A stretch of DNA of 7,050 nt, taken from Escherichia coli. GTDB lineage: Bacteria > Pseudomonadota > Gammaproteobacteria > Enterobacterales > Enterobacteriaceae. Below are positions 1 through 7,050 of this stretch, one piece after another. The position numbers and the translations under genes are program-made. The stretch lies in the NCBI RefSeq assembly GCF_003334255.1, contig NZ_QOWU01000098.1. One strand, written 5' to 3'. The notes under the pieces were generated by a model, which saw only the letters and a list, made by a program, of their open reading frames with translations, did not search any database and was not told the origin of the DNA. The number at the start of each line of letters is the position of its first letter. Position 1 is the first letter of the stretch.

Positions 1-55
1 TATTTTCCGAATGCATAATGACCTCCTCTGGAATATCCCACCAATGCTATAGTGA

Positions 56-253
56 GTATATAAAGGTCATACCATCTTTATGTTCTTCGGCGGCGAGCGC
101 AGTGCACTGTTGTATGGGCTTATCGGCACTTGCCTTCTGAACGACATTGATCCGGAAGCGTATCTGCGCCATATCCTGAGCGTACTGCCGGAATAACCTT
201 CCAACCGTATTGATGAACTCCTGCCATGGAACGTAGTTCTCACCAATAAATAA
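56..253 (+). pseudogene. IS66-family transposase TnpC, C-terminal fragment interrupted by an in-frame TAA (194..196) where the family has a conserved Trp (LPEWPSNR); an in-frame TGA at 53..55 lies just upstream
   Basis: The reading frame stays recognisable on both sides of the TAA at 194..196 (…HILSVLPE * PSNRIDELLPWNVVLTNK). The ORF-track entry 67..273 on the minus strand is antisense to this and has no recognisable content. Confidence 0.55.
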
Positions 254-254
254 G

Positions 255-283
255 CATCAATATGATTCTCCATTAACGCTTAC
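255..283 (+). repeat. Candidate right terminal inverted repeat of the IS66-family element
   Basis: Sequence ...GCATCAATATGATTCTCCATTAACGCTTAC sits immediately after the tnpC stop. The exact IR length cannot be set without the other end of the element, which is outside the window. Confidence 0.4.
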
Positions 284-299
284 CTTTTCTCAGGCTATT

Positions 300-391
300 T
301 TTGCTTTTTTTTGCTTTTCCCCGCCACTTTATGGTGATTATCACATCAATATACATCGATAGATATTAACGTAACTGAAGTGAGGTGAAGC
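300..391 (+). promoter_or_regulatory. AT-rich leader upstream of the operon with a candidate operator palindrome GTGAT-T-ATCAC (334..344) and a strong RBS GAGGTGA (380..386)
   Basis: 108-bp non-coding gap between the IS66 end and the ATG at 392. Two TTGCTT motifs (301..306, 311..316) and several weak -10-like hexamers (e.g. TATACA 350..355, GATATT 362..367) are present; no convincing -35/-10 pair with 17-bp spacing could be fixed by eye. The 5-bp inverted repeat arms are perfect. RBS is 5 nt before the ATG. Confidence 0.3.
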
Positions 392-1605
392 ATGAAATTT
401 GAACGCCATCATGAAATATTGAAACGACTCAGTAAATTCGGTTCTGTAAAAGTATCCGATCTGTCCAATAGCCTCAATGTAACGAAAGAAACTATTCGTT
501 CAGATCTTAATGAACTTGCCAGGCTTGGCTATCTGACTCGATGTCATGGCGGTGCTTTTATCGTCCTAGACTCGCTTGATACTATTGCGAAAAATGAAAT
601 CGCTTATGCGCTTGAAAATTATGATACAGCCCAGGGAATAAAAAAAGGCCACTCAACTATGAAAAGTCAAGTATGCGTTATTGGTTCGTTTAATGTTGAT
701 ATCATCAGTTATTTGCCGAGGCTTCCCACTATCGGAGAATCGCTTCTGGCAAGTAATTTTATATTTTCACCGGGGGAAAAGGCTGTAACCAGGCGCTGGC
801 AGCAAGCTTTGCCGATACTGATGTTTATTTCATAACAAAAGTAGGTACAGATCACTTTAGTGATTATGCGATCAACTTTATGAATTCGTCTAAGATTTAT
901 AAAAGTATAATTTATCAAACGAAAGAAACGCAAACCGGAACTGCCACGATCCTTGTTAATGAAGGTACTGGCGATAATGTTATTGCGATCTATCCCGGTG
1001 CCAACATGACAATGTCGTCCGATGAAATAACTATTCAGAAAGAAGCGATTATTAATTCTGATGTCATACTTCTGCAGCTCGAAACAAATTATACCGCTCT
1101 GCAACAAGCGATCACATTGGCGCAAAAAAACAGTATCCCGGTCATTATTAACCCGGCACCCTATAATGATATCGTCAACGAACTTATTCAGGATGTTGAT
1201 TATATCACCCCCAATGAAACAGAAGCTGGTTTACTGTCCGGCATAGACGTACACGATCTTGAATCAGCTAAACGAGCTGCAGAAGCTATCCACAATAAAG
1301 GGGTAAAAAACACGGTTATCACGCTCGGTAGCAAGGGCTCGCTCGCATTTGATGGCAAAAAATTCATTCATTCGCCAGCGTTTCCAGCGGTCGTTAAAAA
1401 TACGGCAGGAGCCGGGGATGCGTTTAACGGCTCTCTGGCATCAGGACTTGCGAAAGGAAAATCACTGGAATCAGCACTGTGTTATGCCAGCGCCTTTGCA
1501 TCCCTAGCGGTGGAGACAAGCAATGCTTCCGACATGCCTGAACATGAATCTGTGATACATCGAATTCAGAGTATACATTATCAGCAAACTATTTTTACGC
1601 ATTAA
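392..1605 (+). pseudogene. DeoR-type HTH domain fused to a PfkB/ribokinase-family sugar kinase, disrupted by a -1 frameshift in a G5 run (772..776)
   Basis: N-terminus ERHHEILKRLSKFGSVKVSDLSNSLNVTKETIRSDLNELARLGYLTRCHGGA is a classic HTH_DeoR signature including the hGGA motif. From KSQVCVIGSFNVD...GESLLASNFIFSP the protein is ribokinase-like. The frame breaks at CCGGGGGAAAAGG: frame +2 (ORF 392..835) gives FSPGEKAVTRRW...*, while the frame of ORF 880..1605 gives GGKGCNQALAAS...VGTDHFSDY, restoring the ribokinase GGKGxNQA motif. The downstream part contains NPAPYNDIVNELIQDVDYITPNETEA and the PfkB signature NTAGAGDAFNGSLASG. A sixth G would restore a single ~404-aa ORF. Confidence 0.8.
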
Positions 1606-1618
1606 GAAAGGACAGAGA

Positions 1619-4804: not shown

Positions 4805-4813
4805 GAACAGTGC

Positions 4814-4840
4814 AAAAGTGGCTCTTCCGCAACCTGGGTG
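4814..4840. repeat. Left terminal inverted repeat of the ISL3-family element (as drawn on the plus strand)
   Basis: AAAAGTGGCTCTTCCGCAACCTGGGTG, matching the reverse complement of 6521..6547 with one mismatch (C/T at position 9). Confidence 0.7.
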
Positions 4841-4847
4841 AAGATTT

Positions 4848-6467
4848 TCATGCCAGTGGACTCATTACCCTCCGCCTAAGTAGTTCAAGTCCGGCTCGAC
4901 CATACATCTGGCGTATCAGCACCTTCAGGCGATTTACATGACCTTCGACAACACCAGTACTCCAGCGACTGCTGATTGCCTCACATATAGCCGCAGCATC
5001 AGCTTCCATCCCCGCAGCTACGCACCGAAGTTCTGCTGAGCCGCTTTCGTGGACCCGAGTGAACCAGCTGCTTAGCTGTGATTTATTTTAGGTTTTCAGA
5101 ATACGGTAGAACTCGAGTACCAGTTGCTGCGCTATTTTCAACTCCGGTTCTTTTTCACACATCAGACTAATAAATCGGAAAGCATAATTTTCTTCACCCC
5201 TGATTATTCTCCAGGGCATCAACCAGCGGCTTACCCGGGACACTGAAGGAAGTCTTGCGGCAGTAGTAACCGGTGGGATCCAGCCTTTATGCCATTTGGC
5301 AACAGCATCCCTGACGATGGTTTCACTGCCTGTAACCCCCCTGGCCACCATTTCCCGCCATATCCGGCCGGAGTTATAATTACCACATTCTCGTTGCTCT
5401 TTTAACCACTCCCTCCATGGGTCCAGAAGCCCTCGCTTTGGAGGCCTAGTTGACATTTCAGGGAATGTTCCTGAACCCACCCAGCGACTGACTGTCACTC
5501 GCGACAGGCCTGTAATACGGGATATTTCCCTGAAACTACATCCCTTGTTATGCAGGGCCATAACCTCTGTCCAACGCTGATGCCGTTTTTTGCGGATGTG
5601 CTGTTTAAGGCGTTCCAGACGACGGAGCGATGCTACAGGCACAGATATTTCTGGCTCAGGTGATTTCTTCAGTGATAACTCTCTGACAACAAGACGTATC
5701 AGAGGCATATATCTGTACATCATTCGTTCAGGCTCATCACCAATATTTTTTAGCAGGTGCCATCGATCGGCCACCTGTCTGGCCTGAGGTGCACCTTCAC
5801 GTGCTGCTGTCGCATAGACTCCACTGCGATCACGCGAGACAACCTGTATTTCCGGATATTTTCTGAACCAGGTCGCCAGCGTACGCTGATCACGGCCGGG
5901 AAGCAGGACGAGGGGACGGTGAGTATCAGGATTGACTATTAACATACCGCAGCAGTGGCCCCGATGCCACGCCCACTCATCAATACCGACATGAGGCGCG
6001 CCTGACTGTTTCGTCTCCGGGGTATTGATAAGCCTGCGAAGAAGAGTATCAGCACTGCAACGGAGACCCACTGCCGTTGCAGCCCGTTTTCCAGCCTCAC
6101 CTCCAGCTATTAATCCCAGTTGACGTTGTTAATTTTGTAACGCCTGTGAAGACTGCTGGTGTGAACTGGCGAAGGGAGCAAGCGACTCGGCAAAAATTTT
6201 ACGTGAACAAGCCGGGTTACGGCAGTACCAGTGGCGGACGGAAAATACAAGCCATAGCGTCTGCCCTGAGCAGGGTAGATGCTGTATCCGGCGCCGACGA
6301 CAACTATGAACAGAGTCGCTACGCTTAAAGCATTCAGGACATTGTGCTGTTTTGCGTTTTCCGTGGAGATGGAGGGTTATACCGTCAGAGCTAATAATTT
6401 GTCGACTGCATCGCCATCCGCAAGGTAACTGTAGAAGTGTCTTAAGAGAGTGCATTGCGTTGCCCAT
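4848..6467 (-). pseudogene. ISL3-family transposase (about 539 codons) in one continuous frame, broken by two in-frame TAA codons (6129..6131 and 5088..5090)
   Basis: ORF 6129..6467 (zinc-finger part: ...CPECFKRSD...HWYCRNPACSRKIF), ORF 5088..6071 and the untracked tail 4848..5087 are all in the same frame. Translating across the stops gives ...QALQN * QRQLGLIAGGEAGKRAATAVGLRCSADTLLRRL... (HTH-like), then ...VGIDEWAWHRGHCCGMLIVNPDTHRPLVLLPGRDQRTLATWFRKYPEIQVVSRDRSGVYATAAREGAPQARQVADRWHLLKN... (DDE region), then ...FYRILKT * NKSQLSSWFTRVHESGSAELRCVAAGMEADAAAICEAISSRWSTGVVEGHVNRLKVLIRQMYGRAGLELLRRRVMSPLA* (typical ISL3 C-terminal motif). The final stop at 4848..4850 is 8 bp inside the left IR. 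Confidence 0.8.
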
Positions 6468-6520
6468 AACTTAAAACAGCTTAGATCCTTGTTCGCCAGA
6501 AAGTTTCATCCATTTTCTTC

Positions 6521-6547
6521 CACCCAGGTTGCGGAAGAACCACTTTT
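6521..6547. repeat. Right terminal inverted repeat of the ISL3-family element
   Basis: Plus strand CACCCAGGTTGCGGAAGAACCACTTTT, reverse complement AAAAGTGGTTCTTCCGCAACCTGGGTG. The transposase ATG (6465..6467, minus strand) lies 53 bp inside it. Confidence 0.7.
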
Positions 6548-6750
6548 CATCCGTCGTTGACAGATGTGAAGTATGCGGGAGAAAAAGTGAATATCTAACT
6601 GTAATAACTCAGACCGGTACGAGTACTCGGGACGTCTACAATCATTCAGGGCAAAGTGCTAAAATTTCTCTATCCCGGGATGCCCCTACCAACGCAGCAC
6701 TCCCGGAGATATCATTACAGCTCTGCAACTGATTTCCGCGACTGAACCGC

Positions 6751-7050
6751 TCAGTTCCTATCCTTCCAGTTGCCCTCCTGCCCCCCCTCCCTGCTGTATA
6801 CCCCGGTACCACAACTCGGGCAGCACTTTTCCCCCTCATAATTTTCGTCACACATCACACAAAACCACTTTCTCACCTTCACCGTATAATCCGGAACCGT
6901 CATACCCTGCAGATGCAAACGACGGGCCTCTTTCTCTGCCGGGTCAAGCCAGGTGCATCGCAGCAGGATTTTCTCAGCGACAGTCATCTGGTCATGTTCA
7001 AACCACGGTGGTTGTCCGTCATTGCCCCGCTGAAGTGTTAACGGGCATCC
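6751..7050 (-). CDS. Partial CDS (C-terminal about 99 codons; N-terminus beyond the window end) for an unknown protein with a C-terminal Cys4 zinc-ribbon motif
   Basis: The minus-strand frame is open from the window edge: GCPLTLQRGNDGQPPWFEHDQMTVAEKILLRCTWLDPAEKEARRLHLQGMTVPDYTVKVRKWFCVMCDENYEGEKCCPSCGTGVYSREGGQEGNWKDRN*, stop at 6751..6753. CVMC...CCPSC is a CxxC-x9-CxxC motif. The internal Met at 6985..6987 lacks a clear RBS, so the gene probably starts outside the window. I do not recognise the family. Confidence 0.45.
   Translation of the reverse strand, partial: GCPLTLQRGNDGQPPWFEHDQMTVAEKILLRCTWLDPAEKEARRLHLQGMTVPDYTVKVRKWFCVMCDENYEGEKCCPSCGTGVYSREGGQEGNWKDRN

Follow-up and report, generated by a model that had tools for sequence, protein, structure and literature searches.

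Clustered inactivating lesions in a 7-kb stretch of Escherichia coli DNA: probable local decay of an IS-rich island remnant carrying a putatively captured rikA operon

Why should some seven kilobases of Escherichia coli DNA carry seven inactivating lesions? The question is raised by a stretch of 7,050 nucleotides (nt) on contig NZ_QOWU01000098.1 of assembly GCF_003334255.1 (hereafter the window, meaning the whole stretch analysed), in which the kinase gene rikA, a transporter gene, a fragment of ggt and two insertion sequence (IS) transposase genes are broken. The answer that we favour, with a probability of about 85%, is that the window is a slice of an old IS-rich island remnant adjoining cobU in the E. 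coli chromosome, and that the lesions are genuine pseudogenisation of this locally decaying island; a host-restricted genome is not supported. According to the proposed course of events, a 4.5-kb piece of another enterobacterial chromosome, comprising the four-gene rikA operon and the last ~300 nt of a convergent ggt gene, would have been captured, and it now lies between the right end of an IS66 element and an ISEc38-like ISL3 element. Such island DNA is presumably dispensable for E. coli, so that lesions would accumulate and be inherited, an oldest, a middle and a youngest layer building up in turn, with repeated slippage in a run of six G.

A sequence-only reading of the window had listed the seven lesions, and all of them are present at the positions that it gave. 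Each was compared with an intact reference; as the reading had proposed, relatives with intact copies were consulted, and at the lesions of IS66, rikA, the transporter, ggt and ISL3, intact close homologues have a sense codon or an uninterrupted frame. The IS66 tnpC gene has an in-frame TAA (194-196) 19 codons before its natural stop (251-253), at the position of the conserved Trp of '..DWPxNR..LLPW' near the C-terminus in an alignment to intact TnpC. In the kinase gene, the G run at 772-776 has five G where intact alleles have six; the window reads CCG GGG GAA AA in place of CCG GGG GGA AAA (PGGK within the conserved SPGGKGCNQA). This allele is frameshifted at codon 128, and the addition of one G restores a reading frame of 404 amino acids (aa). 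The transporter gene has TAG (3040-3042) in place of TGG for Trp203, a residue in a highly conserved stretch that is kept in an intact E. coli allele and in 8 of 8 other species compared; the stop falls 35 residues into the second YdcZ repeat. The ISL3 transposase has stops in place of Gln460 (CAA; 5088-5090) and Leu113 (TTA; 6129-6131) of intact 539-aa relatives including ISEc38.

The two remaining lesions are in ggt. Its T run at 4638-4641 has four T against five in ggt (an A5 run on the gene strand), the sole gap in a 295-nt alignment. A 12-base-pair (bp) gap between two GGTAGC direct repeats (junction 4762-4767) rests on six further matching bases (GTTACC) before homology ends; a deletion there is plausible but weakly supported, not proven. 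The gene is also truncated, as had been claimed: only the last 295 nt of 1,743 align, plus 6-12 nt. Altogether, 5 of the 8 coding features of the window are broken. The sequence-only reading had overlooked that the IS66 gene is itself a 3' stub, cut at 75/76 by an ISEc45 insertion. In the relatives examined, public PGAP annotation already marks genes as frameshifted, internally stopped or incomplete, and the pseudogenes of this locus are an ordinary phenomenon, already annotated in public genomes.

The distribution of the lesions was surveyed with 31-nt queries centred on each of them, using megablast against 5,426 complete E. coli genomes; because megablast needs an exact 28-mer, each match must carry the queried allele. 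Counted in this way, as lower bounds, the ISL3 Gln460 stop occurs in 2,628 genomes (nearly always in one place per genome), the ggt T4 frameshift in 2,582, the IS66 TAA in 1,976, the ISL3 Leu113 stop in 817, the transporter TAG in 610 and the rikA G5 run in 232. Sense alleles were counted at two sites, giving 1,430 genomes with TGG at the transporter Trp203 codon and 1,197 with G6 in rikA; the G-run census covered G5 and G6 only. No lesion is private to the window, the range being 232-2,628 genomes per lesion allele counted, and carriers come from humans, cattle, poultry, dogs, food, water and laboratory stocks. Because the same alleles are present in many independent genomes, the lesions are not sequencing artefacts; they are heritable, and pseudogenisation is genuine, as the sequence-only reading had supposed for at least a part of them.

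Together with the haplotypes, these frequencies order the lesions in time. The oldest layer is formed by the IS66 stop, the ggt truncation and frameshift, and the ISL3 Gln460 stop, which are essentially fixed wherever the remnant exists. The transporter TAG and the ISL3 Leu113 stop are later and mark sub-lineages, forming the middle layer, and the youngest layer is the rikA frameshift, the rarest allele.

The window as a whole resembles E. coli chromosomes at 99.6-99.8% identity, and at least 80% of it is covered in 1,875 of the 5,426 genomes. Over 76-4967 it is 100% identical to its closest relative, EC2001; from 4830 to the end it is identical to HH45. Two arbitrary 50-kb stretches of the EC2001 core contain three pseudogenes among 97 coding genes, as compared with seven lesions in the 7 kb of the window. 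The local excess of lesions is real.

The captured segment (297-4769, plus strand) has a GC content of 44.4% and is arranged colinearly with the rikA-STM3550-ggt locus that is native to Salmonella and Citrobacter. In blastn, one uninterrupted block extends over 297/298-4769, with ~76% nt identity to Salmonella enterica diarizonae and two Citrobacter species; tblastn gives the same gene order in all three, the operon being followed by a convergent ggt, which is full length in both Citrobacter loci, while the Salmonella locus ends inside ggt. The operon encodes, in this order, a DeoR-PfkB kinase, a GATase1-like protein, a DMT transporter and a phosphotriesterase-related protein (PTE), identified by NCBIfam, Pfam and PDB matches, although no NCBIfam family matched the GATase-like or the DMT protein. 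The kinase pseudogene (392-1605, plus strand), named rikA in some records, is homologous to STM3547 and would encode a DeoR-type helix-turn-helix domain fused to a PfkB ribokinase. The GATase1-like gene (STM3548 homologue; 1619-2377, plus strand) is intact in the window; its 252-aa product is full length relative to Salmonella and Citrobacter and matches PDB 2gk3 with E = 7e-145. It is followed by the transporter pseudogene (STM3549 homologue; 2434-3399, plus strand), with two DMT_YdcZ repeats, and by the intact PTE gene (STM3550 homologue; 3402-4436, plus strand), whose 344-aa product is full length.

STM3547 is RikA, a recently characterised PfkB kinase with ribose kinase activity, and the cluster STM3547-STM3550 has been described, its function being unknown (PMC13432705). 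The likeness to the Salmonella cluster extends to all four genes and their order, with 81-96% aa identity, and to the convergent ggt after them, and the E. coli kinase likewise has a DeoR-type N-terminal domain fused to the PfkB kinase. The E. coli copy differs in lying off the native site, as an insert that is flanked by ISs near cobU and retains only the 3' part of ggt, and in having the kinase and transporter genes inactivated in the window. Ribose kinase activity has been shown for the Salmonella enzyme only (PMC13432705). Salmonella RikA is reported to begin, apparently, at Met90 and so to lack the DeoR domain (PMC13432705). The matching ATG is at 659 in the window; because this lies upstream of the frameshift, either start would give a truncated product.

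The ggt fragment (4476-4775, minus strand), with its T4 frameshift, its probable 12-bp deletion and everything upstream gone, bears on where the segment came from. Its nt identity is 92% to nt 1449-1743 of E. coli ggt and 81% to the ggt genes of Salmonella and Citrobacter, and a separate E. coli ggt, matching the fragment at ~92%, is present elsewhere in 5,424 of the 5,426 genomes. The fragment would thus be the 3' edge of a neighbouring gene carried along with the captured operon, not a decayed resident ggt. Over 4476-4769 it differs from E. coli ggt by 22 mismatches, 14 of them synonymous and 8 non-synonymous, with 15 of the 22 at codon position 3. Because the differences are mostly synonymous, the divergence appears to predate inactivation for the most part, which suggests that the fragment diverged in a fairly close donor lineage, under purifying selection, before it was captured. 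The comparisons point to an Escherichia-like donor. The 80 hits retained from a scan of species-representative genomes include no Escherichia locus; the closest loci among them are those of Citrobacter and Salmonella, at 85-87% aa identity. A 'broken ggt' of this kind would mark the capture of an operon from its native ggt-adjacent site in a relative.

The surroundings of the segment were laid out from the PGAP annotation of relatives and from our own comparisons. cobU/cobS lie directly upstream of the locus in several strains. The locus is accessory, with mobile elements on both sides (IS66, ISEc45 and ISL3) and a presence that varies between strains: about one-third to one-half of E. coli strains carry the remnant, the operon is covered to at least 80% in 1,906 of the 5,426 genomes and partially in several hundred more, and ~2,700 records, including those with a partial segment, match the segment at 99% or more in their best place. 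The locus is like the islands of the cobU site in being a mosaic of ISs (IS4, IS66, ISL3, IS110 and IS3) with small phage-like genes, partial genes and variation between strains. CP4-44 of K-12 is an IS-rich island remnant at the same site. For CFT073, the island GI-CFT073-cobU is listed in such a position (PMC6315130, Table 3); it is likened to the present locus by its cobU position only.

Further lesions in other lineages would indicate ongoing erosion of the island. Comparison of the window with 14 relatives (15 sequences in a table of single-nucleotide polymorphisms (SNPs), a sample enriched for G5 carriers) and with further strains reveals such lesions. UTI89 has a stop at Gln25 of the transporter, and 23CRST011 has stops at Gln81 of rikA and Glu110 of the GATase gene. 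A -1 deletion at 1735 in the GATase gene is common to HH45, 2009C-3133, EE72d, WAT and s104, which belong to one haplotype; 2009C-3133 and s104 also have a 4-bp deletion in rikA, and extra frameshifts are found in E. coli C and s104. In EC2001, ISKpn26 is inserted in rikA, and other strains have further IS insertions in or beside the locus. Approximately 700-800 genomes seem to retain only part of the segment, those sampled usually having a 5'-truncated PTE gene and the ggt fragment; the truncated PTE gene of 7_26_9A has a stop of its own. The operon is being lost piecemeal and repeatedly, by independent stops, frameshifts, IS insertions and deletions in other lineages. The 'frameshifted' notes of HH45 were at one point ascribed to a poorly polished assembly, an explanation dropped for the 1735 site because five strains share it. 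The window and EC2001 do not have the 1735 deletion, though they share G5 and TAG with those five strains.

Such repeated loss raises the question of whether selection in E. coli has favoured inactivation of the operon. Among the 15 sequences, rikA, the GATase gene and the transporter gene were inactivated independently at least 13 times; these events, and the additional IS insertions and deletions elsewhere, would agree with adaptive loss. However, neutral decay of a dispensable island predicts the same pattern, the sample is enriched for G5 carriers, the sense alleles G6 and TGG are still common, and two sampled strains carry all four operon genes intact. Adaptive loss is thus conceivable but unlikely.

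A second possibility, that the whole source genome is under relaxed selection (Shigella-like or host-restricted) and the window is a typical sample of it, is suggested by the density of IS elements at the locus. The sequence-only reading had proposed relaxed selection in the form of either a host-restricted genome or a decaying island. The island part is supported; the host-restricted part is not, as the lesions are common across lifestyles and the EC2001 background is normal. Pseudogenes are not elevated in the two core regions of EC2001, the closest relative, and the lesions are not specific to a lineage, since all seven are found in E. coli of diverse origin (humans, animals, food and water), and each is carried by ordinary strains, whether commensal, pathogenic, environmental or from food. 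With three of the lesions in ~2,000-2,600 of the 5,426 genomes, of every lifestyle, and a normal EC2001 background, a host-restricted genome is unnecessary as an explanation, and we regard it as improbable. The locus does resemble those of host-restricted pathogens (Shigella, Salmonella Typhi, Mycobacterium leprae) in its nonsense codons, homopolymer frameshifts and IS disruption; it differs from them in that decay is confined to a dispensable island common to free-living and commensal E. coli. A general caution follows, namely that stops and frameshifts clustered in a short window need not mean a degenerating genome or bad sequence when they lie in an IS-bounded island remnant. In the present case, up to half of the species has the same lesion alleles.

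Several points weigh against the local decay of a captured island segment, or at least temper it. The pseudogene background was taken from 100 kb of core in the nearest relative, EC2001, alone. The census misses genomes with a further SNP in the 28-mer seed. The scan of species-representative genomes did not find a donor with an operon matching at >95% beside a full-length ggt. Polymorphism in the four operon genes comprises 22 synonymous, 17 non-synonymous and 4 nonsense changes, which suggests that some constraint remains and that decay is not entirely neutral. In each of the 15 full-length loci examined (the window and 14 others), the PTE gene is intact. The corresponding polymorphism in the ISL3 transposase is 11 synonymous, 23 non-synonymous and 2 nonsense changes; by this measure, the evolution of ISL3 is about neutral, and constraint on the operon is weakened.

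The apparent sparing of the PTE gene amounts to no inactivating event in these loci, whereas its three partners have at least 13 between them; a binomial calculation of a simple kind gives ~0.02-0.05 for a sample that is biased to G5 carriers. Residual selection may act on the PTE gene alone, yet the genomes that seem to hold a partial segment usually have it truncated at the 5' end. In the transporter, repeat 1 survives because the stop sits in repeat 2, and any working of repeat 1 by itself is speculation.

The rikA frameshift deserves separate treatment, because the same event appears to have occurred several times. In E. coli, PGGK is encoded by CCG GGG GGA AAA, a G6A4 run at 770-781. At the DNA level, the G6 run is absent in the six other species examined, which include Salmonella, Citrobacter, Klebsiella, Budvicia and Proteus; because synonymous codons interrupt the G run, these species have no slippage-prone tract. 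Within the B2 haplotype, G5 is seen in UTI89 (NC_007946) and G6 in EC5654 and TUM11356; the B2-specific SNPs that flank the run, at 499 and 792, are retained in UTI89. The C227-11-type haplotype is likewise split, with G5 in 2014C-3051 and E. coli C and G6 in C227-11 and Y5. A third G5 background is formed by the haplotypes of the window/EC2001 and of HH45 type. The presence of G5 on at least three haplotypes requires at least three independent length changes. Those on the A-type haplotypes can be read as either loss or reversion. The rikA frameshift is recurrent slippage in the G6 run, not a technical error.

Recurrent slippage in a coding homopolymer, with the frame switched each time, is reminiscent of simple-sequence contingency loci, and the run might be a functional on/off switch (phase variation). 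The number of length changes among the 15 sequences and the absence of G6 in the other species would be compatible with this. A tract of six bases is, however, short for phase variation in a mismatch-repair-proficient species. Moreover, most sampled G5 carriers have an inactive transporter and many an inactive GATase gene, so that switching back would not restore the operon; with the downstream genes often dead, rapid reversible switching is not indicated. A functional switch is thus highly improbable. A wider conjecture is that the erosion is not purely neutral, the G6 tract toggling the DeoR-kinase over evolutionary time while the PTE gene is selectively kept as its three partners are lost. 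We consider this doubtful and give it only a slim chance; if it were true, the PTE protein would have a stand-alone function in E. coli, and the transporter and kinase might be costly.

That the lesions are errors of sequencing or assembly is hardly credible even for the two homopolymer indels, which the sequence-only reading had thought possibly technical. They do lie in runs (G5 at 772-776 and T4 at 4638-4641) that are classic sites of technical indels, but the identical alleles recur in the hundreds or thousands of complete genomes counted above, as do the four nonsense substitutions (610-2,628 genomes). The G5 carriers include UTI89, a Sanger-sequenced genome in which PGAP marks the kinase as 'frameshifted'. 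Bypass of the stops and frameshift by programmed recoding or a variant genetic code, for which the in-frame positions of the stops are the sole argument, is negligible, as the earlier reading had judged a variant code to be unlikely: relatives and orthologues have Trp, Leu or Gln codons and an uninterrupted frame at these sites, TAA ends the four operon genes, and an Rfam scan of the window gave no match.

The mobile elements that bound the segment have histories of their own. At the left, positions 1-75 (minus strand) are the end of an insertion of ISEc45, an IS110-family element whose transposase is annotated in HH45, Y5 and UTI89, bases 1-16 being the first transposase codons. Strains without the insertion served to place the boundary at 75/76, and ISEc45 was inserted later than the captured segment. 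The IS66-family tnpC 3' fragment and the IS66 right end (...CGCTTAC at 283) occupy 76-283 (plus strand), as placed by alignment to intact TnpC and by PGAP, which describes the gene as 'incomplete; missing N-terminus'.

At the right lies a dead ISEc38-like ISL3 element (4798-6563, minus strand) with 43-nt imperfect inverted ends. Its transposase gene (4848-6467), in which both TAA codons lie, would encode a protein of 539 aa with zf-ISL3 and DDE_Tnp_ISL3 domains and 91% aa identity to that of ISEc38. The ends of the element were fixed by a plasmid-borne copy in pE2865-2, which carries the same Gln460 stop; the dead copy, or its allele, is on plasmids too (37 plasmid places). Although the family generates an 8-bp target-site duplication, none is present in the flanks of the window copy (AGGCCATA versus ATGTGAAG), which is consistent with a rearranged dead copy. 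The window copy thus differs from ISEc38 by its two nonsense codons and the missing duplication, and it is fixed in place. A composite transposon was considered and rejected, because the elements on the two sides are of different IS families and the ISL3 element lacks a target duplication.

A 22-nt relic, AGTGAGTACATAAAGGCCATAC, occupies 4777-4798 (plus strand), between the end of ggt homology and the left end of ISL3, and is identical at 20 of 22 positions to sub-terminal positions 51-72 of ISEc45. As the homology ends on either side of it, the relic is more than a mere truncated IS end. Across ISL3 (compared over 4800-6850), the A-type and B2-type haplotypes differ by ~2.6%, but across the operon by only ~0.5%. 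23CRST011 is a mosaic: its left part has variants of its own, while from ~3290 rightwards it nearly matches the HH45-type haplotype. The pattern suggests recombination or gene conversion within the locus.

Two further features lie outside the coding sequences and elements described above. Between the convergent PTE gene and ggt fragment, the terminator scan detected a GC-rich hairpin (4444-4470) with a 12-pair stem, 9 of the pairs GC, which is likely a putative terminator shared by both. It was the sole standout; a promoter scan of the window performed no better than on shuffled sequence. At the right edge, positions 6751-7050 (minus strand) hold the 3' part of a zinc-ribbon-domain gene that continues beyond the window; no lesion was seen in it, and it is annotated as intact in all sampled relatives. 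This gene has an in-frame 3-bp length variant at 6779, giving 135 or 136 aa in relatives, and both forms are annotated as intact.

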